Assembly (NCBI GenBank): GCA_050124295.1
Contig: JASFFM010000002.1
Location: forward strand, 1 to 39,709
DNA length: 39,709 nucleotides
Direction: 5' to 3'
From: Desulfobacterales bacterium
GTDB lineage: Bacteria; Desulfobacterota; Desulfobacteria; Desulfobacterales; UBA5852
How positions within the stretch are numbered: the first letter of the stretch is position 1; each line of letters starts with the position of its first letter. Of the stretch, positions 3,302 through 31,664 are shown one piece after another. Under the pieces are notes generated by a model that was given only the letters and a program-made list of their open reading frames with translations, was not told the DNA's origin and made no database searches. Both the position numbers and the translations under genes were made by a program.

Positions 3302-3371
3302 ATACAGGATCCAATTGAGCCGCGGTTGAATTTTCTGTTTATATCCCCAACTATCGCCAGGTGAGACGATT

Positions 3372-5020: not shown

Positions 5021-5749
5021 TTAGGTTGACTCTCTCTGGACCGGCCGCATACCGCCGTCATCTGTTCGTTCCGCTGAATCATCAACCACGGCGCCTGAAA
5101 AAATGTTTGCCGGTACGTATAGTTTCAAATGACGATTGGATCGATCCCAATCGATAGAGACCGCTATCGACGCGGCAGCCCTTTTGAGCGATGGGTCTGG
5201 AAATACCTGGAATTCTTTGATTCTTAAGCTCGAAAATTCGATCATCCAACCCTTAGAAGAATTCGAACCGACGGCGATGTCCAGCACGGAGTTCGGTCCC
5301 GCATTCTTAAAATGTTGATAGACAAGCTCGTAAACAATTGCCTGAAGCACAAACGGAGACGTCTCGGCCACAGGGGATGGGCCATTCCATGGCGCCAGTC
5401 GGGTTTTTCCAGCAAAGGAGAGATAATTGGATAAATGGCAAACCAGATCCAAGAGTTTCATGAGATCGATGGAGACGATCGGTGTATCGACGCTGTGGGA
5501 AAAGCGATTCATCTGTCGAATCGTGGTGAATCCACGCTGAATCTCCTCCATGATACTGTCGGTGCTGCTTTTTAACATTTCGGGATCGACAGGCGTCCCC
5601 TTGGAGGCCATCTCCGACAGGTCGCCCAGCAGTCCTGCCGTTTCAGAGATGATCGCCAAGATGTTTTTCAGTTCATGGGAAATCGATGCATTGACCCGCC
5701 CGAAAAATGCCAGGCTGTCATAATCAAACAGCTCTTTTGCTTTTAGCAT
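5021..5749 (-). CDS. Soluble HisKA-containing protein with a degenerate HATPase_c domain (pseudo-kinase, phosphotransfer or phosphatase candidate)
   Basis: H-box ISHELKNIL is present and a possible N-box remnant is YQHFKNAG. I can find no DxGxG (G1) or GxGLGL (G2) ATP-lid motifs. No TM or sensor domain. Confidence 0.7.
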   Translation of the reverse strand: MLKAKELFDYDSLAFFGRVNASISHELKNILAIISETAGLLGDLSEMASKGTPVDPEMLKSSTDSIMEEIQRGFTTIRQMNRFSHSVDTPIVSIDLMKLLDLVCHLSNYLSFAGKTRLAPWNGPSPVAETSPFVLQAIVYELVYQHFKNAGPNSVLDIAVGSNSSKGWMIEFSSLRIKEFQVFPDPSLKRAAASIAVSIDWDRSNRHLKLYVPANIFSGAVVDDSAERTDDGGMRPVQREST

Positions 5750-5810
5750 ATCCCGTCCTCACAATGGAGTTCCTTCCTCTCATCAGCCGCGATGAAGCCC
5801 CTGTCGCCTA

Positions 5811-6185
5811 TTAAGGCTCATCGACACGGTCCGCTTCGCCAAGATGATCGAGGGCTTCAATAAGTGCTTCGATTTTCAACGGCTTGGGAAGATAACCGTC
5901 CGCCTCTTGGGCACCCACCTGGTAATCTGCATCCGATCCATGTCCGGTCAGGAAAATGAAATTCATGCGGGAATCCACGGCATTCAGTTTACGCCGCAAC
6001 TCAATGCCGCCAATTCCCGGCATCTTGACGTCGAGAAGGGCCACGTCGAAGCGGTTGCCCTCCTCGACCGCTTTTAAAGCCTCGACTCCGGAAAAGAACA
6101 CTGAGGCTTCGATATTCCTGAGCCTAAGGCGTTTGGCCAACATCGTGGCAAATTTCTGTTCATCGTCCACCAGCATTATCTTCAT
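5811..6185 (-). CDS. Stand-alone response regulator (REC only)
   Basis: IMLVDDE, DVALLDVKMPGIGG, FLTGH, GYLPKP. Its start overlaps the HK stop by 4 nt (6182-6185). Confidence 0.9.
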   Translation of the reverse strand: MKIMLVDDEQKFATMLAKRLRLRNIEASVFFSGVEALKAVEEGNRFDVALLDVKMPGIGGIELRRKLNAVDSRMNFIFLTGHGSDADYQVGAQEADGYLPKPLKIEALIEALDHLGEADRVDEP

Positions 6186-9920: not shown

Positions 9921-10727
9921 ATGAGTAAAGAAAAAGTGAATATACTGCTGGTCGATGACAACCCCAAGTTTCTTGCCTCCGCAGCCGAGCGTGCCAAGAT
10001 CAAAGGATTCAACGTATTCGCGGCCGAAAACGGCAAGGCCGCTTTGGCCATCGCCAAAGATACCCCCATCCATGTAGCGGTGGTCGATCAGCAGATGCCG
10101 GACATGGAAGGTCTGGTCGTTATCACCAAACTCAAGGCGATGGTGCCGGACATCCGTACGATTCTGTTGACCGGACACGGCGACGAAAAACTCAAGGAGG
10201 CCACTGAGGCGCTCAATTCGACCTATTTCGACAAGGAAGAGATGGGCCGCTTCTGGGAATTTTTGTCGAATCTGCCGCTGGGCGGCATCAATATCCTGCT
10301 GGTTGACGACAACGAAAAGTTTGTCACTGCCTTGGCTGAGCGCATCCGACTTAAAGGATACGAGCCATTGATCGCGCTGAACGGTCGTGAGGCCCTGGAA
10401 ATTGCCTCCAGCAACAAAATCCAGATGGCCGTAGTCGATCAGAACATGCCGGACATGGACGGTCTCGTGGTCATTACCAAACTAAAGGAACTCGACCCCA
10501 CAACCCAGACGCTGCTCCTCACAGGTCACGGTGATGACAAACTCAGGGAGGCGACCCAGGCACTCAACTCCAAGTACTTCGAAAAAGAAGAGATGAATAA
10601 ATTCTGGAGTTTTATCCGCAGGAATCTCCAACGACTGGAAAAACATATGGCTGCGGCGGGAATGGCTACAGGCGGTGACATCGAGGAAGCGATAGACATT
10701 GAGTCGGGTGGCGAACGCAAACGATAA
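9921..10727 (+). CDS. Double-REC response regulator (two tandem receiver domains, no output domain)
   Basis: Two copies of the pattern ILLVDDN.KF...VVDQ.MPDM[ED]GLVVITKLK...LLTGHGD[ED]KL[KR]EAT.ALNS.YF.KEEM..FW.F. Confidence 0.9.
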   Translation: MSKEKVNILLVDDNPKFLASAAERAKIKGFNVFAAENGKAALAIAKDTPIHVAVVDQQMPDMEGLVVITKLKAMVPDIRTILLTGHGDEKLKEATEALNSTYFDKEEMGRFWEFLSNLPLGGINILLVDDNEKFVTALAERIRLKGYEPLIALNGREALEIASSNKIQMAVVDQNMPDMDGLVVITKLKELDPTTQTLLLTGHGDDKLREATQALNSKYFEKEEMNKFWSFIRRNLQRLEKHMAAAGMATGGDIEEAIDIESGGERKR

Positions 10728-10937: not shown

Positions 10938-12419
10938 ATGACGACCCAACCAAAACAGGTGCTTCTTGTCGATGACGAGGAAAAATTGCTCAGGTCCATC
11001 GCCCAGCGAATGAAAATCCTGGGGTTTGCGCCCCACACGGCAACGAACGGGATGGCGGCGCTTGAAATTGCCAAAAAACGTCCTATCGATCTGGCAATCG
11101 TCGATCTTCAGATGCCCGACATGGACGGCTTGGTGGTCATCACCAAACTCAAGGAAATTGATCCCCAATTGCGAACCGTTTTGTTGACCGGACATGGCAA
11201 TGAAAAGGTTAAACAGGCCACCGAATCACTCAATTCGCTGTATTTCCAAAAGGAGGAGATGGGTGATTTCTGGCATTTCATCAAACAACTCAATGCCGAT
11301 GGCCAAGTAGTGGTCATCCATCCCGCATCTACGCCGCCATCGGGCAAGAGCATACCGGTCAGCATCTCAGCATCGAACCGAACCGTTGGTTCCCGGCGCA
11401 AAGGGGAACACACCAGTATGAATGAACCCGCCATCGGTTCCCAAAAGGCCGCGCGTCACCCGGACAATATGGACCGTTTGCGGATTGTCGGCGAGACGGT
11501 TGCCATGCAGGAGTTGCGCAAAGCAATCGCTCGGGCAGCGTCCCTGGATTGTATCATTACCCTAAAGGGAGAACCGGGCAGTGGCAAGGAACTGGTGGCC
11601 CGGGCCATACATAATAGCAGTCGGCGTGCTCACAAGCGCTTTTTGGCAATCGACTGTGCTAATTTCAGCAACGCCAAATTGTCCGAACAGCTTCTCGGGT
11701 TTACGGGCGGCAAGCTTTATGAGGCCATCCGAACACGTTCGGGAATATTCGGGTCAGATCCTGTAGGAACGCTTCTCATCGATAATGTAGACACCATGCC
11801 CATCCATATGCAGGACCAACTCCTGAACGCGCTGACCATGACCGAAAGACGGGATGACAATAGGCCGAGCGATTACGGACTGAATATCCGTCTTATTGCC
11901 GCCTCGGAAACCGATCTGGCCAATAAAGTCAAGGCGGATCAGTTCAAGCAGGAGCTTTACGACCGCCTGAGCGTATTCGAACTGACCATTCCCCCGTTAA
12001 GGGAACGCAGGGATGACATCCCCCCGCTCTGCCGGTACTTTTTTGACAAGTACCGAAAGGAACTGAGCAAATCGGTTGATTCGATTGCACCGGAAGTCGT
12101 CGAGATGCTGGTCGACTATAACTTTCCGGGAAATGTACGGGAGCTCGAACATATCATTGAACGCGCTGTGATCATTGCCGATGGTAAAACGGTGATGCGC
12201 CAGCACCTGCCAGCGCGCTTTCTCGAAGAAAAAAAGCCGACGCGATTGTTGAAAGGCGACCTATTCACAACCTTGGCTGAGGTTGAAAAACGTCACATCT
12301 TCGAAATCCTCGATGCCACGCATGGCAACAAGTCCAAAACAGCAGAAATCTTGGGAATCAGCCGTGCGGCATTGTGGCGCAAATTAAAAAAATTTAAAGG
12401 CGAGGCGTTCGGACGATGA
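10938..12419 (+). CDS. NtrC-family (REC / AAA+ sigma-54-interaction-like / Fis-type HTH) regulator with degenerate GAFTGA, Walker B and R-finger motifs
   Basis: The REC domain is of the same subtype as the upstream gene. Walker A GEPGSGKE is present. LLGFTGGKLYEA occupies the place of LFGHEKGAFTGA, LLIDNV the place of LFLDEI, and FKQELYDRLSV the place of FREDLYYRLNV. The C-terminal HTH is SKTAEILGISRAALWRKLKK. Confidence 0.9.
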   Translation: MTTQPKQVLLVDDEEKLLRSIAQRMKILGFAPHTATNGMAALEIAKKRPIDLAIVDLQMPDMDGLVVITKLKEIDPQLRTVLLTGHGNEKVKQATESLNSLYFQKEEMGDFWHFIKQLNADGQVVVIHPASTPPSGKSIPVSISASNRTVGSRRKGEHTSMNEPAIGSQKAARHPDNMDRLRIVGETVAMQELRKAIARAASLDCIITLKGEPGSGKELVARAIHNSSRRAHKRFLAIDCANFSNAKLSEQLLGFTGGKLYEAIRTRSGIFGSDPVGTLLIDNVDTMPIHMQDQLLNALTMTERRDDNRPSDYGLNIRLIAASETDLANKVKADQFKQELYDRLSVFELTIPPLRERRDDIPPLCRYFFDKYRKELSKSVDSIAPEVVEMLVDYNFPGNVRELEHIIERAVIIADGKTVMRQHLPARFLEEKKPTRLLKGDLFTTLAEVEKRHIFEILDATHGNKSKTAEILGISRAALWRKLKKFKGEAFGR

Positions 12420-12606
12420 ACCCGTTGTTTAAATTTTTTTTTCTGAAAAGCTGGCGGTCAAGGCAATCACGATGGTGTTCCTCGCCCCTCCTTGTACGTA
12501 AACAATGTTGAGGGATGATTCTTTTCTCTATTGGCCAACAATCAGGGAACGGCTGTCAGTCCTTATCATTGGGCCAGTCTCTGAATTAATTCAGCGGCCA
12601 AACCCA

Positions 12607-12857
12607 GATATGTCACGCGTTGGAGGCCTCCCGAGCAGGTCCTGCCGAAGCCCCGCGGTAGGCATGCGACCGCAAGCGCCTGATAACGCATGAAATGGAT
12701 GCCGCGGGCTTGCCCGCCGGGTGAAAAGGGTGTGCGCTGCGTTCTGCAATTCGCGGGTCACCAAGGGTTACCAGACAAATTCGATGCAACCTTCCGTTAA
12801 GACACGGAGCAACTTCGCCCAAACAAGTGGGCATCAATATTTAGATGAAAAGTTCGG
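12607..12857. repeat. Copy A of an unassigned, hairpin-rich non-coding element of about 250 nt (candidate structured RNA)
   Basis: Collinear with 18922-19173 in the same orientation. Exact shared blocks are CCGCGGTA, CGACCGCAAGCG, GGCTTGCCCGC, GGGTGAA, AACCTTCCGT, CCCAAACAA and GTTCGG. Stops occur in all frames, and indels between blocks are not multiples of 3. Confidence 0.6.
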
Positions 12858-13152
12858 ACTAAATTCTTTCAATAAGAGATACGCAAACAAATATGGTTTT
12901 GGGTTTAAAAAAATTTTGCCTTAGATGGGGTGCCAGAAAAGCAATTAAAGCTGTCCTTGTGATACGTTGAGACGATCCCAAAATGTTCGCGTTAGGCAAA
13001 ATTCCAGCTTGACAGTATAAGACCTTTAATAGTTCAATTTAAGCCTGAGAGCATTGGCAGCAAGCATAAGCAAGACGGGTTTACCAATATCTTGGCGTTA
13101 TGTGACGACTTTATCCAAGATTTGGATACCCGTCATCGTGATTTGAGAAGAT

Positions 13153-13395
13153 TCAAAATTGCTGTTCTATCTTTTCCAATGCATCAAGGTCCCACTGTAA
13201 ATCCATCGCCAGAAACAATTCTTTCGCCTTTTCAAGATATTCTTCAACGCCTATGCCATTTAACGCTTTATACTTGCTCTTATCTTCAAGAAAACGTTTA
13301 CCGATTTCCATATAGGTTCGCGCAAGATCGGGACGGGCCGCCACGCGCTTACTTTCGGTGATGGCCTTTAGCCAGAATTTCACGGCTTTTTTTTT
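13153..13395 (-). CDS. Displaced C-terminal segment (about 76 codons, TPR-like helices) of the cyclase-STAND gene, in a different frame after an A9 run
   Basis: After the A9 run (T9 on the plus strand, 13387-13395) the alternative frame reads KAVKFWLKAITESKRVAARPDLARTYMEIGKRFLE...EEYLEKAKELFLAMDLQWDLDALEKIEQQF*, a natural continuation of the helical repeats. A hairpin at 13103-13135 follows its stop. Confidence 0.6.
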   Translation of the reverse strand, partial: KKKAVKFWLKAITESKRVAARPDLARTYMEIGKRFLEDKSKYKALNGIGVEEYLEKAKELFLAMDLQWDLDALEKIEQQF

Positions 13396-16300
13396 GCTTG
13401 TTGTTTAGCCAATAGAACGTACCCGTTAATCTGAAAATGGCTGAACGCAAGGCCGCATATTTTTTAGAATTATTGAGTATGCTCTTGCAGCTTTTGAATG
13501 CCTGTTGCCTGTATTGGGCAAAATGTGAGTTGTTGTTGGTAAGATATGATGCTTCTAACAGGGCAATATCATATGAAAACCTTGCGAAAAGATACGGCAA
13601 GGCATAAATGGGGGGAACGATCCCTTGTCGTTTATAGTATTCCTCTAATCGTTGCAGGGATTCTTCAGCTCCCGTTAAATCTTGGAGTAAAATTTGAATT
13701 TGCGCTTTATAACCAAGGGAAGCGAGTCTGAGCGGATCCGAGTCGATTTTATTGGCGACCGAAATATATTCCTCGGCCGATTTTAGCGCTTGGTAGAGCC
13801 TTCTGCATTGAATAAGGTACTGCGTTTCGCGGGCTAGTTTGTGAGCTCTGGCTGGTTCATATTCATAGCTATCGGCTATGTTGGCGAGTTTTTCAATTAA
13901 CGGGTATGCCGTCTTGAATTCGCCCTGTTCCAGTTTTACGATACAGTGAAATATATTATAGGTTATGACTTCCCAGAGATTGCCGAGTTTTAAATTCTCT
14001 TCTAACAAAATGTCGTCATACTCTTGAAAATAGTCCCAATTCCCGGATGAGCAGTTATGTATCGATTTACATACATTCAGGAACAAAAGCTCTTTCAAAT
14101 CCTTTTTATTGATACCGTTTTCAGCATGCGCCAGAAACCGATCGCTGATCCCAAATGATATGCCGGAGTATGAAAAAAAAGCACTACCCGTTAGAAGTAA
14201 AATGAACCCATGTTCAACCAGGCGCAAATCGAACCCCAAACTTTCTTTGATTAACCCAATGACATCGGCAAATTGTCGCTTGGGATCTATAATACTCAAA
14301 AGCTTGACCTTTCTAAAGCTTAGGTCAAAAATTTCATTGTCGCGACTGGTGGGTGTCTTCTTTATTTTTTTGGACGGGATATATAATTGCGGAATAACTT
14401 TAAGTAAATTGAATACAAGCTTTATTTGCACAAGCAGTTTGTTTTGTGGAGAATTTATTCCCCAACGGCTCAATACAATATCGAAATATATAAGAGCATC
14501 TTCATCACCTTTATTGTAAAGCGCGATAGCAATGTTTTTTTCGATTAGAGCAATTTTTTCAGGATCAGCCTTTTTGCCATATATATTTTGATATAAAGCC
14601 AGAGCCTCTTTATAGTAATTTAAGGCCTCACGTGATGCCGAAGATCGTAAAGCTTCTTCACCAGCCTTGATCATGTACTCTTCGGCTTTAGCGAAATCTT
14701 CCCCTTTACTATAGTGATAAGCGAGCATGCCATAGAACTCATGCAATTTATCTTTGAATACCTTCTCGATGGAATTGGCGACTTGAAGATGTATTTCTTT
14801 GCGGCTTTGCACCAGAATCGATTCATAGGCAACTTCTTGGGCAAGGGCATGCTTAAACAGATATTCTAATTCCTCCATTCTCCGACGGTCTCTAATGAGT
14901 TGAATATTTTTTAAATAGGACAGTCGGCTGTCGATATCTTCGATCGTCCCCCCAACCTCTGTTAGAACCTTATAAAAAAAACTCCGTCCGATGACAGAAG
15001 CAAACTTGACCAGGTTGCGGGTTATCTCATCTAATCGGTCGATCCTGGCCATGAGCACGTCATTAATGGTGTGGGGAATATCCATGGCGTTGATTTTGGC
15101 GGCCACTTCAAATGTGCCCTCTTTGGCAACAACCGCCCCCTCGTCGATCAATGAGCGCACTACCTCTTCAATAAAGAAGGGGTTGCCGCCTGACCGTTCA
15201 ACGATTCGATTGACGACCGACAACTGAAGGCCCCTAATATTGAGCATGTTGCTGACCAGGATTTCACTCATGCGCACATCCAACGGCTTTAGTGCAATCT
15301 CGACATAATAAACAGCAAGATTTTCCTTGATGGTCTTAATAATCCGGTCGCCGGTTTTTTGGTGCCCCGGTCGAAAGACATTTACAAAAAGAACGCGATG
15401 CCCCTCGGCCAGGCGCATCAACGACTCCAAAAGTTCAATCGAGCTCATATCCGCCCAGTGAAGATCTTCCGTTACAATCACCAGCGGGTTTAGCTCGGTC
15501 GCCATGATTAATAGATCACGCACATTTTTAAGGATAAGCCTCTCCAGCGCTTCGCCTTCAATGCCTTCCACTCTTTGTGCATATCGGCCAGGTAGCTTCA
15601 TTCTCATAAGGGTGGCTACAAAGGGCAATACCTCATGCAGATCCTCCGCGCATACGCGCCTTACAGCTGTCTCCAGCTTGATAAGCGCCGTCGCCTCGCT
15701 GTCATCCTCTCTGATTTTGGCCCACTGCTTTAAAAGATCAATAACGGGATGGAAGCTTAAATTCCGGCCCATTGACATGGCCCTTCCCTCAAGGAGGGTG
15801 ATGCGATCCATTATCTCCCTGTTTTTTAATTCGGCCACCAGGCGCGACTTTCCGATACCGGCCTCACCAATGATGTTAACAACGGAACCTTCACCGTTAA
15901 TGGTCTTTAAAACTTGAATTTCTAATAGGTTGAGTTCTTTTTCCCGACCCACCATCTCGGAAAAGATCTGCCTGTCTAAACCCGATTTGAGTCGCTCGAT
16001 AGCATCGCCGAGCTCATAAACTTCTAAGGGTTCTTCCTTACCTTTAACCTTCACCTTGCCTAACGACCTGTATTTAAAATACACGCTGGTCTGTTTGTAG
16101 GTGTTTTTGGAGACCAGAACCGTTCCCGGATGAGCATTGCTTTCCATTCTGGCGGCGATGTTCACCGTGAACCCCGTGGCCGTATAATCGGCCCTCAGGT
16201 CATCTCCAATGGAGCCGATCACCACAGGGCCGGTATTGAGACCAGCTCGCAACCGAAAGTCTACTCCATACAAACGCTTGACCTCTTGACTATACGTATT

Positions 16301-16732
16301 CATGCTGTTGCGAATAGCGATTGCTGCGTGGCAGGCCCGTAGTGCATGATCTTCATGGGCCACCGGCGCACCAAACAGCGCCATCACCCCGTCGCCGGTG
16401 AATTGGTTAATCGTACCCCCATAGGCATGGATTTCATCCATCAAGATCCTGAAGGCGCCGTCCATAATCCGGTGGACTTGCTCGGGATCCAACTTGTCGG
16501 ACATTGAGGTAAACCCCGCCACATCCGCAAAAAACACGGTCACCTGCTTACGCTCGCCTTCGATGGCGCTTTTATGGATCAGGATTTTTTCAGTTAAGAA
16601 CTTAGGCGTATAGGGGTGCAGATGAGTCAGCTTTTGGGAAGTCGTGCCAGTTTCTTTTTTCAGATCACGACCGCATTCATGGCAGTATCTGGCCACATCC
16701 GGATTATCCGTTTGACACTTTAAACATTTCAT
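13349..16732 (-). CDS. Zinc-ribbon / class III adenylate-guanylate cyclase / STAND (AAA_16-type) NTPase / TPR multidomain protein; reading frame broken near the 3' end
   Basis: N-terminus CLKCQ...CHECG. Cyclase motifs are VTVFFADVAGFT, FTGDGVMALFG and TVNIAARME. The P-loop is IIGEAGIGKSRL. A long helical-repeat C-terminus follows. The ORF stops 10 codons after the A9 run. Confidence 0.9.
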   Translation of the reverse strand: MKCLKCQTDNPDVARYCHECGRDLKKETGTTSQKLTHLHPYTPKFLTEKILIHKSAIEGERKQVTVFFADVAGFTSMSDKLDPEQVHRIMDGAFRILMDEIHAYGGTINQFTGDGVMALFGAPVAHEDHALRACHAAIAIRNSMNTYSQEVKRLYGVDFRLRAGLNTGPVVIGSIGDDLRADYTATGFTVNIAARMESNAHPGTVLVSKNTYKQTSVYFKYRSLGKVKVKGKEEPLEVYELGDAIERLKSGLDRQIFSEMVGREKELNLLEIQVLKTINGEGSVVNIIGEAGIGKSRLVAELKNREIMDRITLLEGRAMSMGRNLSFHPVIDLLKQWAKIREDDSEATALIKLETAVRRVCAEDLHEVLPFVATLMRMKLPGRYAQRVEGIEGEALERLILKNVRDLLIMATELNPLVIVTEDLHWADMSSIELLESLMRLAEGHRVLFVNVFRPGHQKTGDRIIKTIKENLAVYYVEIALKPLDVRMSEILVSNMLNIRGLQLSVVNRIVERSGGNPFFIEEVVRSLIDEGAVVAKEGTFEVAAKINAMDIPHTINDVLMARIDRLDEITRNLVKFASVIGRSFFYKVLTEVGGTIEDIDSRLSYLKNIQLIRDRRRMEELEYLFKHALAQEVAYESILVQSRKEIHLQVANSIEKVFKDKLHEFYGMLAYHYSKGEDFAKAEEYMIKAGEEALRSSASREALNYYKEALALYQNIYGKKADPEKIALIEKNIAIALYNKGDEDALIYFDIVLSRWGINSPQNKLLVQIKLVFNLLKVIPQLYIPSKKIKKTPTSRDNEIFDLSFRKVKLLSIIDPKRQFADVIGLIKESLGFDLRLVEHGFILLLTGSAFFSYSGISFGISDRFLAHAENGINKKDLKELLFLNVCKSIHNCSSGNWDYFQEYDDILLEENLKLGNLWEVITYNIFHCIVKLEQGEFKTAYPLIEKLANIADSYEYEPARAHKLARETQYLIQCRRLYQALKSAEEYISVANKIDSDPLRLASLGYKAQIQILLQDLTGAEESLQRLEEYYKRQGIVPPIYALPYLFARFSYDIALLEASYLTNNNSHFAQYRQQAFKSCKSILNNSKKYAALRSAIFRLTGTFYWLNNKQKKSREILAKGHHRK

Positions 16733-16859
16733 TTTGGGAGCCTATGAAAAGTAAGTGATCAGGCCTTAAAAAAAGACGATATAGTCGGTCGATCAGTCTA
16801 TCATCAAGCAGCCAGCACGGAAAGGCATCTCAAATATGAGCTCAGAGACAAAAATGATA

Positions 16860-18413
16860 TCATTGATGGCCTGGTTGATTTCCAATCGGCCCTTTTGTTC
16901 CCGAGCCAATCATGTGTTCGGGAAGGTCTGGTTCGCTAAAATTCGTTTGCTTGCTGAAAGGACTGCTTAACAATCGGTAAATATCTGACATTTCCATGTT
17001 GCCGCTAAAAGAGCGAATGAGCTTATAGGACTGAATCGGGCGGCCAAATATACGTCGAAAAAAAAGAAGTGCATATCCTTTCATGCGGATGCGGTTTAAT
17101 GCCTCACCGGGAAGTACGGATGCGTCGATGTCCGAGCATTTGAAATATTTGTACCAATCACGCTCATCGTCTATTATTCCGCCCTCCACGTATTCATTCC
17201 ATAAAGGGGTTCCCCGGTGGACGCGCAAACGGTCAAAATTAAAGGTATCGATTTTCAATCGGGCTGCAAAGCGAAAACTCTCCATGATATCTTTTTCGGT
17301 TTCGCCGGGCGTGCCGATGATGAAAAATCCGTGGATCCGCTCAATTCCATTGTTTTTGGCTTCATCAACGGCGCGTTCGATTTGTTTCAAGGTCTGCTTC
17401 TTACCGAGTCGATCGAGGATTTTTTGCGTACCGGCCTCAATTCCAAAGGCCATGACTTTACAATTTGCTTTTTTCATTAAAGCAAATTGATCAATTGCGC
17501 TGGAATCGACCCTCCCTTCGCAACCCCAGTTGAAATTGAATTTGCGGTCGATGATCCCCTCGCAGATTTCTCTGATTCGATCGCTTCTAAGTAAAAAGTG
17601 ATCGTCAACCAAATAAACGGACCGATAGCCCATATCATTCAGTTCTTGCATTTCACCTAAAACACTCTCCGCCGAGCGCAAACGCCAGCGACAATTTGAG
17701 TAAGCCGGGATGGTACAGTAAATACAATTGAACGGACAGCCTCTGGATGTTTGTACGGTGCAAAATTTATCGAGCGAGAAGACGGCAGGCACGTCAAGGG
17801 GTAGCGCTTCGATATACTCAACCGGCAAGGTGGTTCGGTCTGGATACGGAAAAAGGTCCAAGTCTTTTATCATCGGACGTCGTTCGTTAGAGATGATTTT
17901 ATCACCATTTCGCCAGACCAGACCAGCCACAGTACTGGGATCTTCGATATTTTCGAGGTAATCCGGCAGAAGTTCTTCACCTTCCCCGATACCCACACTA
18001 TCGACATATTTACAGTCTTTCAGGATTTCAACTGCATTCATCGAAGCAAACACCCCGCCCAAAATGATGGGCGTGGACGGTGCCACAATCTTCATTTGTT
18101 TGGTCATGCTTTGCGTTAGGGGGTATGTTGTTGAAGAGAGCAAAGACAACGCAATGACATCCGGCTGCTGTTGCTCAAGGTCCTTTAAAATGTGTTGGGT
18201 TGTCATCTGCGGGTGGCAGGTGTCGAACATGCGCACCCGATGACCGTGCTGGCGCAAAATGGGTGCGAGCGTTTGAATACCCAGGGGGGGGTATGCCATC
18301 ACCCTGACATTCGGGCTGTCTGCCATTTTGGCGTTTAATTTTTCCGGCAGTAAATTGTAAAATTGTTCATCGCGAACACAAATTAGAAACACGTTCATGG
18401 CGTCTTTTCCCAT
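16860..18413 (-). CDS. B12-binding-domain radical SAM protein
   Basis: N-terminal cobalamin-binding-like Rossmann region (DVIALSLLSS...PIILGGVFAS) followed by SRGCPFNCIYCTIP (CxxxCxxC). An alternative start is at 18398 (MNVFLIC). Confidence 0.9.
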   Translation of the reverse strand: MGKDAMNVFLICVRDEQFYNLLPEKLNAKMADSPNVRVMAYPPLGIQTLAPILRQHGHRVRMFDTCHPQMTTQHILKDLEQQQPDVIALSLLSSTTYPLTQSMTKQMKIVAPSTPIILGGVFASMNAVEILKDCKYVDSVGIGEGEELLPDYLENIEDPSTVAGLVWRNGDKIISNERRPMIKDLDLFPYPDRTTLPVEYIEALPLDVPAVFSLDKFCTVQTSRGCPFNCIYCTIPAYSNCRWRLRSAESVLGEMQELNDMGYRSVYLVDDHFLLRSDRIREICEGIIDRKFNFNWGCEGRVDSSAIDQFALMKKANCKVMAFGIEAGTQKILDRLGKKQTLKQIERAVDEAKNNGIERIHGFFIIGTPGETEKDIMESFRFAARLKIDTFNFDRLRVHRGTPLWNEYVEGGIIDDERDWYKYFKCSDIDASVLPGEALNRIRMKGYALLFFRRIFGRPIQSYKLIRSFSGNMEMSDIYRLLSSPFSKQTNFSEPDLPEHMIGSGTKGPIGNQPGHQ

Positions 18414-18921
18414 TGATTGAGATTCGAACCCTCTATATTACAGCGGGACGTTCTCCTTTGAGATGCCGAAGTGTTTGCAAAGCTGCGCTTTGGCGGTATC
18501 GGCAGCTTAAAAGCGAGATTGAGGATTATCACCGCGTTGATTACCGAATTTCGCGCTGTCTGGATTATCAAAACGGCATTCAGGAGTTTGCATAGGCAGT
18601 CCTCGTACGGCAGATTAAATAACCAAAGACGGAAACGAGGAAAGACCATGCCGAATCTGGATTCAGTGTGGCGCCGGCGGACGGTTTGCTTCAGAGCTAA
18701 TGAGCACTTGGTATGATGCGACCCTGTAAATCAAGGTGGGCCTTATTTAGCAGGGTCCATCACGAATTGTCAATATTATTTATAGGTTAAAGATATTCAA
18801 AATGACTTTAGGCTCGGAATTGATGGATTTGCGATGACCCTATTATTATTTACAGTTGAATGTCCATTGTCGATCTGGTGGCGGGATGCAAACAGACCAG
18901 AAAAACATATCTTTTCATCCT

Positions 18922-19173
18922 GATATTGAACGCGTTTGATGCCTCCATTGACAAGGCCCTAAGGAGCGCCGCGGTACGCATACGACCGCAAGCGTCTTAT
19001 AATCCCAGAAAGAGATGCCTCAGGCTTGCCCGCAGGGTGAATTTGGCATGCGCCTCCGTCTGAAATTCACCACCCCCAGAAGGTTGCCGGACAGATGGAC
19101 CACAACCTTCCGTCAAGGCCGAAAGCCAACTCACCCAAACAAATGGGCCTAATGATGTTCATGGTATGTTCGG
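18922..19173. repeat. Copy B of the unassigned ~250-nt non-coding element
   Basis: See copy A. Hairpins are GGTGAATTT (19036-19044) with AAATTCACC (19063-19071), and GAAGGTTG (19079-19086) with CAACCTTC (19103-19110). These are mirrored at the homologous positions of copy A with different loop sequences. Confidence 0.6.
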
Positions 19174-19402
19174 GTGCCGATTGCCAACATACCAACCGGC
19201 CAACAACCATCTTTTACTGCCGGCAGTCATCCTGAAGGCTTATTGGAACGCGGGGAGTAGGCCCGGACTCCCCTTGATCAACGTTTTTTGAAAACAAACG
19301 CGATAGAAACGCCTGGCGGTATTCAACGTTTTACACCGTTGATAACAACCCTTGGGGCCGTGACAATGGAATCGTTACACGCATATCCAGAATTGTTTGT
19401 GG

Positions 19403-19609
19403 TTATTCCAATTTGAAGGAAACCTTTAATTTGGTGCGGTATCCGACGATTCTGTTATCTTCTAATCGCATATCCATTTGAACGACTTCGGCCACGCGCA
19501 TATCGCGAATGCTGCGGTCAACGGTGGCGACAGCAGCTTTCGCTGCATCTTCCCAGGATTTTTCCGAAAACCCTACGACCTCGACGATTTTGTAAACACT
19601 ATTATCCAT
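19403..19609 (-). CDS. Dodecin-family small flavin-binding protein
   Basis: MDNSVYKIVEVVGFSEKSWEDAAKAAV...YRTKLKVSFKLE, 68 aa. Start moved to the ATG at 19609 (AAGGAG 6 nt upstream) from ORF 19403..19687. Confidence 0.8.
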   Translation of the reverse strand: MDNSVYKIVEVVGFSEKSWEDAAKAAVATVDRSIRDMRVAEVVQMDMRLEDNRIVGYRTKLKVSFKLE

Positions 19610-20056
19610 GACCATCTCCTTTCCAAGTTGGGTTAATGAAATGACAACAAGGGCCTGGCGACGGGGTGCCAAGGCCGCCTTGACCAAAGAAATTCAGTCC
19701 ATCTTTTTCTCAGAGTGGCCGCATGCGCTATTCATCGGGCAGGCCCTCGCGCTACGCATCAGGGTTGGTTGAAATCCTTGGGACTTATTCAAACAGCATT
19801 CCGCGCAAGCAAGCCTTGACAGGGTTGCACGATAAAATTTGGCAATCAGAACATAATTCGATATTTGGATTGCCGCTGGGATTTGTCAAGTTTTGCCCAA
19901 ACGCATTATGACCATTGGTGGTAAGCGACCGCATATAAGCACCGCGGGAAAGAAGGCTGGCAAGCTCACCGAATATCTTGTACGGGAATCAATATTCACA
20001 AAATGATCGTTGGTTCCGTGATACCCTGTGAGGATCTTGCGCGTGAAATCCTGGAA

Positions 20057-20305
20057 TTACCACTCTTTTTGCGCGTAAACCGTACGCGATAATGACAACC
20101 AAGATGCCCTTGGGTAAGGAATGACTGAAATGTCCTGCAGCAGCGGAAACCGATTGCCCCTTCCAATATTCATATGATCCCTAAAATCGTCGAAAGTTTT
20201 AATTGTGATTTCCTTATCGCTTTGCCCATCAGATTCCAGGATCAAACGATAAGCAATTGATAGCCGATCAATTTGAATCGCCGAGATTCCGTCTTCTCTC
20301 ATCAA
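20057..20305 (-). CDS. Hypothetical 82-aa protein, translationally coupled to the upstream ABM-like gene
   Basis: Its start overlaps the stop of 20302..20601 by 4 nt. No family recognised. Confidence 0.4.
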   Translation of the reverse strand: MMREDGISAIQIDRLSIAYRLILESDGQSDKEITIKTFDDFRDHMNIGRGNRFPLLQDISVIPYPRASWLSLSRTVYAQKEW

Positions 20306-20601
20306 ATATCGAGTATTTCATAAATCTGTTCTGTGACAGGCTTCGAATTATCGCACCAGGTCTCTCGGACACTCCGAACCAGTGTTTGATATGTCCCGGA
20401 TTGTTCCTCTTTGTAATTGTCCAATGCGACCCTGTTTCTGAACAGTATGATCGCTCCATATTGAGATGGATCATTTTGATTGCGGAAAAATTCTACGCGA
20501 CGAACACCGCTTACGCCACGCAGTTCCGATGCTGAAGTTTCCATCCATTTTTCAACATTTTTTCCTTCCAGGGCGTGGTACGTAACGACACGGATAATCA
20601 T
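20302..20601 (-). CDS. ABM (antibiotic-biosynthesis-monooxygenase / Dabb-like) small protein
   Basis: MIIRVVTYHALEG...VRRVEFFRNQNDPSQYGAIILFRNRVALDNY fits the ferredoxin-like ABM pattern. Start set at Met23 of ORF 20302..20667, which has GGGAG upstream. Confidence 0.5.
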   Translation of the reverse strand: MIIRVVTYHALEGKNVEKWMETSASELRGVSGVRRVEFFRNQNDPSQYGAIILFRNRVALDNYKEEQSGTYQTLVRSVRETWCDNSKPVTEQIYEILDI

Positions 20602-21198
20602 ATCAAAGCTCCCTTTTTTTGTTCCGGGGTAAATGATGTGAAACTCGCCGTTTACAAACCTCAACAATGCGTTTTTAGCTTCGATTGAGCCTATCTTTAG
20701 AGCGGAAATGTCGTTGGAAGGTGCGCGTCAACAGCCTGCAAGGATTAGAGCGTTTATGTGTCGCTTTCTACTCCGAGGATAACTTAGGATGAGACCTTGA
20801 GTCGAAGCCTAGAATTAATGGAAAATATTACCGCGAGAACACATTGCAAGCGTATCATTTAGAGCTCGTCTTTGGGAAATCGACTCCGGAAGCCAAAAAA
20901 TGGGCTCTCCCGCAGATATTTTTATGATGCAAAGCAGGTTATATTCGATCTTCGATTGGAGAGGGCGCCCGTATACAACCCCTTATCGGCTTGAAAGGCA
21001 ATCGGCAGATCGATTGAGATGGTCCCAAATCAATCGAAGCCCGCCAACAGTTGTGATGGCGTGCCCCTGTGGGTAACAAAAAGATGATTGACGAAGGGCA
21101 TCCCCATCTATGCTGATCAGGCAACAATGTTGCGATGATTCATTCCGATAAAAGAATATCCCTGAAACAATCGCCGATTCTTGCGTCAACCCCCGTAA

Positions 21199-21951
21199 TC
21201 ATTCCTGTTTGCCGCCCAGACCCCGGATAAAGGCCCGCACATTGCGGCCCAGCACATCATGATTGTAGCCGCCTTCCAGGATGCCGAAACACCCCCCCTG
21301 GTTGCGGGCCGCGGCCTGGCGAACCATGCGACCCAGCTCACGGTAATCATCGGTGGACAGCAAGCCGCCCCAGTCGTCCAGGTGGTTGTCGAAGCCGGCC
21401 GAAACCCCGATGATATCGATCCCTTCTTCCTGCAAAGCCAACGCACTCAGCTCCAGATAACGGTCGGCGGACGATGTCTCGGGATTGACGATCGTCACCC
21501 AGGACATGTCTCCCAATATATTGACGTTGCCGTCTCCGTAATGCAGGTCGAAATCCAGAATCAGGGCCCGGTCGATGCGCCGCTCCTGTTTCAAACGGGC
21601 TAGTGCCACAGCCATGTTGTTGAAGTAGCAAAACCCCCAACAGCTGTCCGCCGAAGCATGGTGGCCGGGGGGGCGAATCAGCGCGAAGGCGGGCGCTTGC
21701 AACCCGCTCTCGGCCGCCTGAAGGGCCCCGCCGGCGGCCAGGGCCGCAATTTCAAAAACGCCCTCCCGGCGAACGTCTTCGAGGTGACGCCCGCTGTGAA
21801 CACGCAGAAGATCGGTCTCGGAGGCCGGCTGAATGGTCTGAAAGTCGACCTCGCCTTCGAGGGCCGCCACGACGGCCTCCATGCGACCGGCCGCCGCAGC
21901 GGGGTCGGCCGCATACACCTGATAGAACGCCTCATGGAAATATACTTTCAT
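21199..21951 (-). CDS. Compact histone-deacetylase / acetoin-utilisation (arginase-fold deacetylase) family protein
   Basis: RPPGHHA, CYFNN, DFDLHYGDGN, SAGFD and EGGY motifs in canonical order; 250 aa. Confidence 0.85.
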   Translation of the reverse strand: MKVYFHEAFYQVYAADPAAAAGRMEAVVAALEGEVDFQTIQPASETDLLRVHSGRHLEDVRREGVFEIAALAAGGALQAAESGLQAPAFALIRPPGHHASADSCWGFCYFNNMAVALARLKQERRIDRALILDFDLHYGDGNVNILGDMSWVTIVNPETSSADRYLELSALALQEEGIDIIGVSAGFDNHLDDWGGLLSTDDYRELGRMVRQAAARNQGGCFGILEGGYNHDVLGRNVRAFIRGLGGKQE

Positions 21952-22260
21952 AAACGCCTCCTAAAACCTTCCTTCATCGACCATCGGGATATGCTACGGC
22001 CTGGTTCCAACGCCCCATTCCATAGCCCTAGCGGCGCTCAGGGGCCGATAACTTCCCGTCCGTATCGATGGGTTTTTAAAACAACCATCGTGCCAGACCC
22101 GAATGGCCGCCGTCCCCAGACCATGGCATGCGCTTTGAAAACCGTCAATGCCACTCTGCCGGAATATCGAAACCCATACCACACCCCCAACAACACCTGA
22201 TCGCTAGATTCCGAGATCATCGACCGTCGGCCCTTATTTGGAGGTTCCCGGCGTTTTCAT

Positions 22261-22276
22261 TGGCATGTGCCTTGCT
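22261..22276 (+). promoter_or_regulatory. Sigma-54 (-24/-12) promoter candidate
   Basis: TGGCAT-GTGCC-TTGCT matches TGGCAY-N5-TTGCW exactly. It lies 26 nt upstream of the GTG start at 22302, with GAGGGT at 22291-22296 in between. Confidence 0.55.
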
Positions 22277-31648: not shown

Positions 31649-31664
31649 TGGCATAATGGTTGCT
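31649..31664 (+). promoter_or_regulatory. Sigma-54 (-24/-12) promoter candidate upstream of hdrC
   Basis: TGGCAT-AATGG-TTGCT matches TGGCAY-N5-TTGCW exactly and lies 183 nt upstream of the hdrC ATG. It shares the extended TTGCTCTC with the 22261 site. Confidence 0.5.

Follow-up and report, generated by a model that had tools for sequence, protein, structure and literature searches.

Two diverged non-coding repeats around a radical-SAM/cyclase gene pair in a Desulfobacterales genome are probably relics of a family of miniature inverted-repeat transposable elements

The DNA analysed here (the window) is a stretch of 39,709 nucleotides, covering positions 1 to 39,709 of contig JASFFM010000002.1 in the Desulfobacterales assembly GCA_050124295.1. 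It carries two copies of a small non-coding repeat, copy A (12603-12858, + strand, about 256 bp) and copy B (18918-19174, + strand), which are the subject of this report. A sigma-54 activator gene precedes copy A by 184 nt. Between the copies, on the minus strand, is a cassette (13153-18797) holding, by its Pfam domains, a B12-binding radical-SAM enzyme and its neighbour, a cyclase protein of 1127 aa in which an adenylate/guanylate cyclase is fused to an AAA/STAND module. The copies and the cassette, followed by a dodecin gene, two small unknown open reading frames (ORFs) and a deacetylase-like gene, make up about 10 kb of lower-GC DNA (0.39-0.49) after the activator (12420-22260). The original prediction, made from the sequence alone, took the repeats for paralogous structured RNAs or for the structured ends of a mobile cassette. 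Paralogous, non-coding copies they are, but the cassette-end part of that proposal did not hold. Sequence comparison indicates instead that A and B are probably two old, diverged relic insertions of one small (255-259 bp), non-coding and non-autonomous family of the miniature inverted-repeat transposable element (MITE) type.

The two copies share one orientation, are collinear and start 6315 nt apart in window coordinates. Across 254 aligned positions 174 are identical (68.5%) with a single 1-nt indel, in agreement with the two-thirds identity first estimated by eye, and all seven exact shared blocks listed at that time are present in both A and B. The unequal distances reported between these blocks (37 versus 30 and 35 versus 42 nt) were in error, the spacing being the same in both copies (6, 28, 1, 62, 20 and 25). 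The local alignment score of 94 stands about 67 standard deviations above shuffled sequences (9.5 +/- 1.3), and a separate blastn comparison recovers the repeat at E = 2e-23. Outside the repeat the copies are unrelated, with 20% and 38% identity in the 40-nt flanks. The limits, once placed at 12607-12857 and 18922-19173, are wider by 4 nt on the left and by 1 nt on the right. Within these limits copy A is a complete but decayed unit, collinear with B and with two homologues from elsewhere (L001 and L002, introduced below), matched by nhmmer and by a covariance model, and similar to metagenome sequences over about 12600-12810. Copy B is likewise complete and decayed, as seen in its full-length alignment, in nhmmer and covariance-model hits and in family similarity over 18922-19051 and 19135-19177; independent Logan contigs carry it at 99.9% identity. 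The similarity of copy B to its family has sharp limits at 18922 and 19173/19174; a hairpin at 19252-19273, first noted about 80 nt downstream of copy B, lies outside the conserved unit.

As had been proposed, the repeat is non-coding. Stops interrupt each reading frame in A, in B or in both, none of the ORFs stays open through the two copies, the mismatches fall on the three phases as 27/34/19 without significant 3-nt periodicity, and a six-frame translation of copy A had no match among 5.8 billion predicted proteins. A duplicated protein-coding remnant, at which the nearly gapless alignment and the one frame per copy broken by a single stop might hint, or a mere chance similarity, is hardly credible in the face of these stops, the missing homologous protein, the distance from the shuffles and the hundreds of related non-coding copies in metagenomes.

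The nature of the unit is best seen in its better preserved relatives. Pattern scans of genome and metagenome collections, made with strict patterns, yielded two independent homologues: L001 (identical to L008), from an uncultured deltaproteobacterial metagenome-assembled genome (MAG), and L002, from a Desulfobacterales MAG. Together with A and B they align end to end over 255-259 nt. The consensus ends are 13-bp imperfect terminal inverted repeats, CCCGGATATTTCA ... TGAAATGTTCGGG. The L001 element (5347-5605 of its contig, 259 bp) starts with CCCGCATATTTCA and ends with TGAAATATACGGG, which agree as inverted repeats at 12 of their 13 positions, and is flanked on both sides by an exact TCAG duplication. 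The L002 element has the ends CCCGGATATTTCA and TGAAATGTTCAGG, which pair at 12 of 13 positions counting wobbles, and carries TTAG on both flanks. In the flanks of the metagenome consensus, too, TCAG stands immediately before CCCG. Additionally, alleles without the element were found for L001 in metagenome run X23. Two contigs there share flanks with L001 at 90% similarity or more; the first lacks 5343-5626, with 21 other letters in that place, and the second lacks 5349-5634, with 23 other letters. In each case the shortfall relative to L001 is exactly 263 bp, the sum of the 259-bp element and one 4-bp duplication, and the second contig reads ...CCT TCAG CCTGTAC..., with a single TCAG at the empty site.

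Copies A and B have the same ends in a worn form. The left terminal repeat of copy A (CCCAGATATGTCA, 12603-12615, + strand) differs from the consensus CCCGGATATTTCA by at most two mismatches and pairs with the right one (TGAAAAGTTCGGA, 12846-12858, + strand) at 9 of 13 positions by hand count. The adjoining letters are CAAA (12599-12602) and CTAA (12859-12862), agreeing at three of four positions, and it is possible that they are a decayed target duplication. In copy B the left repeat (TCCTGATATTGAA, 18918-18930, + strand) and the right repeat (TGGTATGTTCGGG, 19162-19174, + strand) again pair at 9 of 13 positions by hand count, between TTCA (18914-18917) and TGCC (19175-19178). Given these degenerate ends and the weak or absent duplications, A and B are read as old, decayed insertions, and they are probably immobile relics.

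Two further repeats were noticed around the homologues. The L001 copy is nested in another repeat with a perfect 15-bp inverted repeat, CCGGGTCGGACCACG / CGTGGTCCGACCCGG, at 5180-5194 and 5806-5820, and the flanks inside this outer repeat reach 10-40 times the depth of the surrounding DNA in run X23; it is probably a second MITE family. On the L002 contig, 26 bp at 3335-3360 (minus strand) look like a left end fused directly to a right end, CCTGAATATTTCA TGAAGTTTTCGGG, with ATAA on both sides; they could represent a minimal derivative or a footprint, or else a palindrome that arose by chance.

The element belongs to a large family. In public wetland and salt-marsh metagenomes that include this locus, 81-279 contigs per run match it with at least 80% likeness, and the summed depth, which is 9-18 in the flanks, climbs to about 2300 at 12700-12719. 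Judged by their joints, some of these contigs hold two or more copies, among them pairs in the same orientation; this 39.7-kb window holds two. The majority letters of the metagenome family differ from copy A at 12634-12652, 12690, 12691, 12696 and 12732, among others, and both A and B are divergent members of the family. Its carriers are Desulfobacterales (Desulfosarcina-like) bacteria of wetlands and salt marshes. The proteins encoded in the window have homologues that put its organism, too, among Desulfosarcina-like bacteria, and exact look-ups of these proteins gave the same strain only. The insertion contexts are unrelated to each other: a sulfatase and a K+ transporter fragment at L001, a transfer-messenger RNA (tmRNA) gene at L002, and a sigma-54 activator, a cyclase and dodecin in the window. 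The tmRNA gene of L002 (28-384, minus strand) encodes the tag peptide ADDYNYAVAA and has a TTGACA-17-TATTTT promoter of its own; the element lies about 150 nt upstream in the same orientation.

A covariance-model search of Rfam 15, of the kind that the original prediction had called for, covered families such as 6S, RNase P, riboswitches and HEARO. Nothing in the window reached gathering score, A and B yielded mere noise at E<=10, and the L001 and L002 elements had no hit at E<=1 (on L002 the search also picks up the unrelated tmRNA gene). The view that no RNA family could be assigned was thus borne out. The element had no match in plasmid BLAST and viral contig scans, and literature searches by taxon and by sequence string returned no paper matching it. 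Most likely, it represents a familiar class of elements but has not been described before.

In the interior of the element lies a structured core; the 5' half, which holds it, carries the most conserved part of the element. RNAalifold was applied to the four copies (A, B, L001 and L002), and pairs were counted on those same sequences that had served for the prediction. On the + strand this predicts a terminal helix formed by the two ends and, inside it, P1, the bulged hairpin P2/P3 and the hairpin P4. In copy A the 5' strand of P1 (GTTGGAGGCCTCC, 12619-12631, + strand) pairs with the 3' strand (GGATGCCGCGGGC, 12697-12709, + strand) at 10 of 13 positions, the mismatches being 12622/12706 (G-G), 12624/12704 (A-G) and 12628/12700 (C-T). 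In copy B the corresponding strands are GTTTGATGCCTCC (18934-18946, + strand) and AGATGCCTCAGGC (19013-19025, + strand), with a T-A pair at position 4 where copy A has the G-G mismatch. P1 is a perfect 13-bp helix in L001 (GTCGCATGCGTTT / GAACGCATGCGGC) and in L002 (GTTCGAGACATTC / GGATGTTTCGGGC), two sequences that differ from each other at 7 of the 13 positions.

P2/P3 occupies 12644-12683 in copy A (+ strand), with P2 formed by 12644-51 and 12676-83 and P3 by 12655-59 and 12669-73. P3 (GCGGT/ACCGC) is intact, and P2 is largely lost, keeping 4 of 8 pairs where B, L001 and L002 retain 6-7; the metagenome majority departs from copy A inside or near P2 at 12644, 12648 and 12652. The copy B counterpart (18960-18999, + strand), likewise from RNAalifold and pair counts, has TAAGGAGC paired with GCGTCTTA as P2, and here the family majority letters, 18961 A>C and 18998 T>G, convert one A-U pair to C-G by a double change. 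P4 follows as TTGCCC-GCC-GGGTGA (12710-12724 in copy A, 19026-19040 in copy B, both + strand, from the same alignment and counts). All six of its pairs are invariant, including a U.G and a G.U, and it coincides with the peak of metagenome depth. A T-rich run after P4 is flagged as terminator-like by a scan in L001 and L002, and is not present in A or B. Two conserved strands of about 13 nt between P1 and P2 contain (T)TGACAAGG and GATAAC (TATAAT in B). GCAAGC and GCTTGC could form an alternative helix, and their invariance leaves no covariation signal.

In these pair counts on four sequences, compensatory changes were found in P1 and P2. Eight pairs are altered on both sides over the four copies, 6 of 13 in P1 and 2 of 8 in P2. 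Pairing is found in 87.5% of the pair cells, against 36-47% when the partners are slid, and none of 500 shuffles reaches the observed values. Base-pairing with compensatory change had indeed been claimed for this repeat, and comparison supports it, although the helices are others than the hairpins named: a terminal helix, P1, P2/P3 and P4. Of those hairpins, GGTGA/TCACC (12720-24 with 12758-62) and AAGGGTT/AACCTT (12763-69 with 12788-93) are present in the sequence together with their copy B counterparts, in the 3' half, which is poorly conserved between subtypes. The 3-bp compensatory stem proposed around ACCGCAAG is incompatible with P3 and does not hold in L002. The fold also has a direction. 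Read on the minus strand, the invariant U.G and G.U pairs of P1, P4 and the terminal helix would turn into A-C mismatches, and the reverse-strand fold is correspondingly poorer. Because these pairs work only on the plus strand, a functional transcript is suggested by the four sequences. The interior pairing thus suggests a selected fold of RNA, or possibly of single-stranded DNA, and we put the chance that the core fold is functional at close to, though not above, even.

The assignment of A and B to a MITE-type family rests on the combination of inverted ends, 4-bp duplications that directly abut them (L001 and L002), empty-site alleles (L001), small size without coding capacity, and unrelated insertion contexts. 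Mechanistically, a DDE-type transposase encoded by an autonomous insertion sequence (IS) elsewhere would bind the element ends, and insertion would take place at TYAG-like sites through a 4-bp staggered cut. On the plus strand of a transcribed copy, P1 would close the two conserved single strands of about 13 nt and the bulged P2/P3, with the invariant, wobble-rich P4 following. The core might then act as RNA once the element is transcribed, whether as a terminator, a stabiliser, a regulatory module or an aid to its own propagation.

Several observations weigh against this assignment or against its RNA component. The ends of A and B are poor, with 9 of 13 pairs each, copy B has no recognisable target duplication, and no empty-site allele for A or B was seen across eight metagenome runs. 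No transposase and no autonomous IS with the element ends was found in the window or in about 440 kb of fetched loci. It is atypical for a MITE that the interior core is conserved more than the termini, and also that A and B, residing in one genome, are only 68% identical. The structural support comes from four independent sequences, with the fold predicted on the same ones. The single-sequence folding energy of A and B is unremarkable relative to shuffles on both strands (z from -0.8 to +0.5). In metatranscriptomes, 4 and 8 contigs match family members, all unstranded and of low depth, and none matches copy B.

In a stronger reading, the element would be a mobile carrier of an active structured RNA core of about 125 nt (P1, junction strands, P2/P3 and P4). 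Such a core might be needed for the element's own mobilisation, or it might be a regulatory, terminator, ligand-binding or protein-binding module that the element distributes in sulfate-reducer genomes. Guide or bridge RNAs serve other transposons in mobilisation. If the core is an active RNA, this would be why the interior is conserved beyond the transposase-binding ends. We consider this proposal tentatively, as doubtful but worth keeping in mind.

The strongest alternative does without mobility. Here the copies would be paralogous chromosomal genes of a novel structured small RNA (sRNA), trans-acting or protein-binding, and the inverted ends would be the terminal helix of the RNA, never mobile as DNA. 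The covarying P1 and P2, the invariant junction strands and the strand-specific G.U pairs agree with it. It is also in keeping with a core more conserved than the ends, with a terminal helix that keeps two wobble pairs in three of the four copies, with family members among the metatranscriptome contigs, and with the absence of matching Rfam families. However, it does not account for exact 4-bp direct repeats abutting the inverted ends in both intact copies, nor for two empty-site alleles exactly 263 bp shorter. Synteny is lacking as well, the element being absent at orthologous loci. There is no conserved promoter, and the terminator-like site is confined to the L001/L002 subtype. We judge this explanation unlikely. 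In any case the readings are not exclusive, as a mobile unit can carry an RNA gene.

More specific RNA candidates were also considered. A sigma-54-dependent sRNA downstream of the activator was rejected: no TGGCAC-N5-TTGC sigma-54 site was found near A or B, nor did the copies show a convincing sigma-70 promoter or terminator. 6S RNA was rejected too, since the short motif resemblances to E. coli ssrS are at chance level in a direct comparison.

A different alternative takes the whole arrangement of copy A, cyclase, radical-SAM gene and copy B as a composite mobile unit of about 6.6 kb, either a MITE-flanked transposon or an integron-like cassette with folded recombination sites. This is close to the bracketing of the gene pair by structured cassette ends seen in the original prediction. 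The copies are co-oriented with their outer ends as an inverted pair, GC is lower across 13-21 kb, and the enclosed gene pair occurs in other genomic contexts elsewhere. In fact, the pair with its upstream leader of about 380 nt has 78-84% nucleotide identity to three contigs (L010-L012) with entirely different neighbours. The blastn homology, however, covers only 13153-18797, leaving a gap of about 300 nt to A and one of 120 nt to B, and these contigs have no element on either side. Each repeat moreover has its own inverted ends, copy A has its own near-duplication, and the outer flanks, CAAA and TGCC, show no duplication. Neither an integrase, including a tyrosine recombinase, nor a transposase was found in the window. 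For an integron, RYYYAAC/GTTRRRY core sites are missing, the ends being CCCGGAT.../...GTTCGGG, and about 256 bp is roughly twice the size of attC. A composite unit is therefore very improbable.

The element is not tied to the gene pair, because the homologous cassettes lack it. Synteny with the cyclase, radical-SAM and activator genes was assessed on 20 fetched loci, and a fixed association with any of them is ruled out by the absence of the element from these loci. In detail, nhmmer and the covariance model did not find it in the cassette loci L010-L014, and it was not found at the orthologous sigma-54 activator loci L015-L025. The orthologues of the activator/two-component cluster have 63-77% protein identity, and the activator there is followed by trkH/trkA or by another activator; in L016 and L017, trkH/trkA comes within about 290 nt of it. 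To judge from these comparisons, the placement of A and B around the cassette in the same orientation is probably incidental. Possibly, copies and cassette alike built up in a variable, lower-GC stretch, which stands here in place of the trkH/trkA neighbourhood seen in relatives. The radical-SAM and cyclase-STAND pair itself, going by its homologues, behaves as a movable or frequently exchanged cassette.

Other observations concern the neighbouring genes. The cyclase-STAND ORF ends early at a frameshift in an A-run near 13386-13395, and the next frame continues to about 13153 (minus strand, 13153-13420), matching the C-terminus of 1192-aa homologues such as P0002. The shift could be genuine, or an assembly error at the homopolymer. 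Desulfobacteraceae contigs carry 4-6 paralogous cyclase-AAA/STAND-TPR homologues, about 1100-1200 aa long, arrayed head to tail (L031, 1-13429, and L032, 1-21185, the latter array containing a cyclic-nucleotide-binding (cNMP) HD protein), and more than 7600 homologues are found at E<=1e-30. Upstream of copy A, three direct repeats of 233 nt (10029-10261, 10380-10612 and 11046-11278) with 67-71% identity correspond to receiver domains, which belong to a response regulator with two receivers (9921-10727) and to the sigma-54 activator (10938-12419). Good matches to sigma-54 promoters are TGGCATGTGCCTTGCT at 22261-22276 (+ strand, 1 mismatch) and TGGCATAATGGTTGCT at 31649-31664 (+ strand, 2 mismatches). 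The first lies 26 nt upstream of a run of genes for an alpha/beta-hydrolase, a HAMP-SpoIIE phosphatase and a MOT1-type transporter.

A conspicuous repeat is thereby explained, and its tempting but wrong link to the radical-SAM and cyclase-STAND pair is removed. What emerges is apparently a MITE family not described before, abundant among wetland and salt-marsh Desulfobacterales and represented by tens of variants in a metagenome. Elements of this sort shape the DNA between genes, where they can provide terminators or promoters, and they are a source of error in searches for new structured RNAs or for the limits of cassettes. If a transposable element does carry a selected RNA fold here, the case would be more than a routine MITE.

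The element may finally be set beside known systems. Like 6S RNA, it has a core helix, a large internal loop and a further helix, and a few short matches to E. coli 6S motifs (GCCGATATTTCA, ACCAAGGGTT). Unlike 6S RNA and other Rfam families, it has no Rfam match even at E<=10 and its similarity to ssrS is at chance; it behaves as a mobile unit, with a 3' half that lacks a rod-like form. The attC sites of integrons have RYYYAAC...GTTRRRY core sites, are 57-141 bp long and come with an integron integrase nearby. As in integron mobilization units and attC cassettes, two co-oriented structured repeats flank a cassette that is also present in other contexts; in contrast to them, the other cassette copies are without repeats, and outer duplication, integrase and attC core sites are missing. 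IS1380-family elements have ends starting with CC, such as the ISEcp1 left end CCTAGATTCTACGT, and make duplications of 4-5 bp. The ends of our element begin CC(C/T)(G/A)GAT and its target duplication is 4 bp, a likeness to be taken as a lead; unlike in that family, a transposase gene or a full-length IS with these ends was not found. The closest parallels in kind are Correia/NEMIS of Neisseria, ERIC/IRU of enterobacteria and bcr1 of Bacillus cereus, bacterial MITEs with effects at the RNA level, of which Correia duplicates TA. The present element has no sequence relation to them, is about 256 bp long with a 4-bp TYAG-like duplication, is most conserved in its interior core with compensatory changes, and has very diverged copies within one genome. 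Like them, it is small and non-coding, occurs in more than one copy (two in this window), has terminal inverted repeats and a short target duplication, lies between genes, is polymorphic for presence and absence, and can fold if it is co-transcribed.

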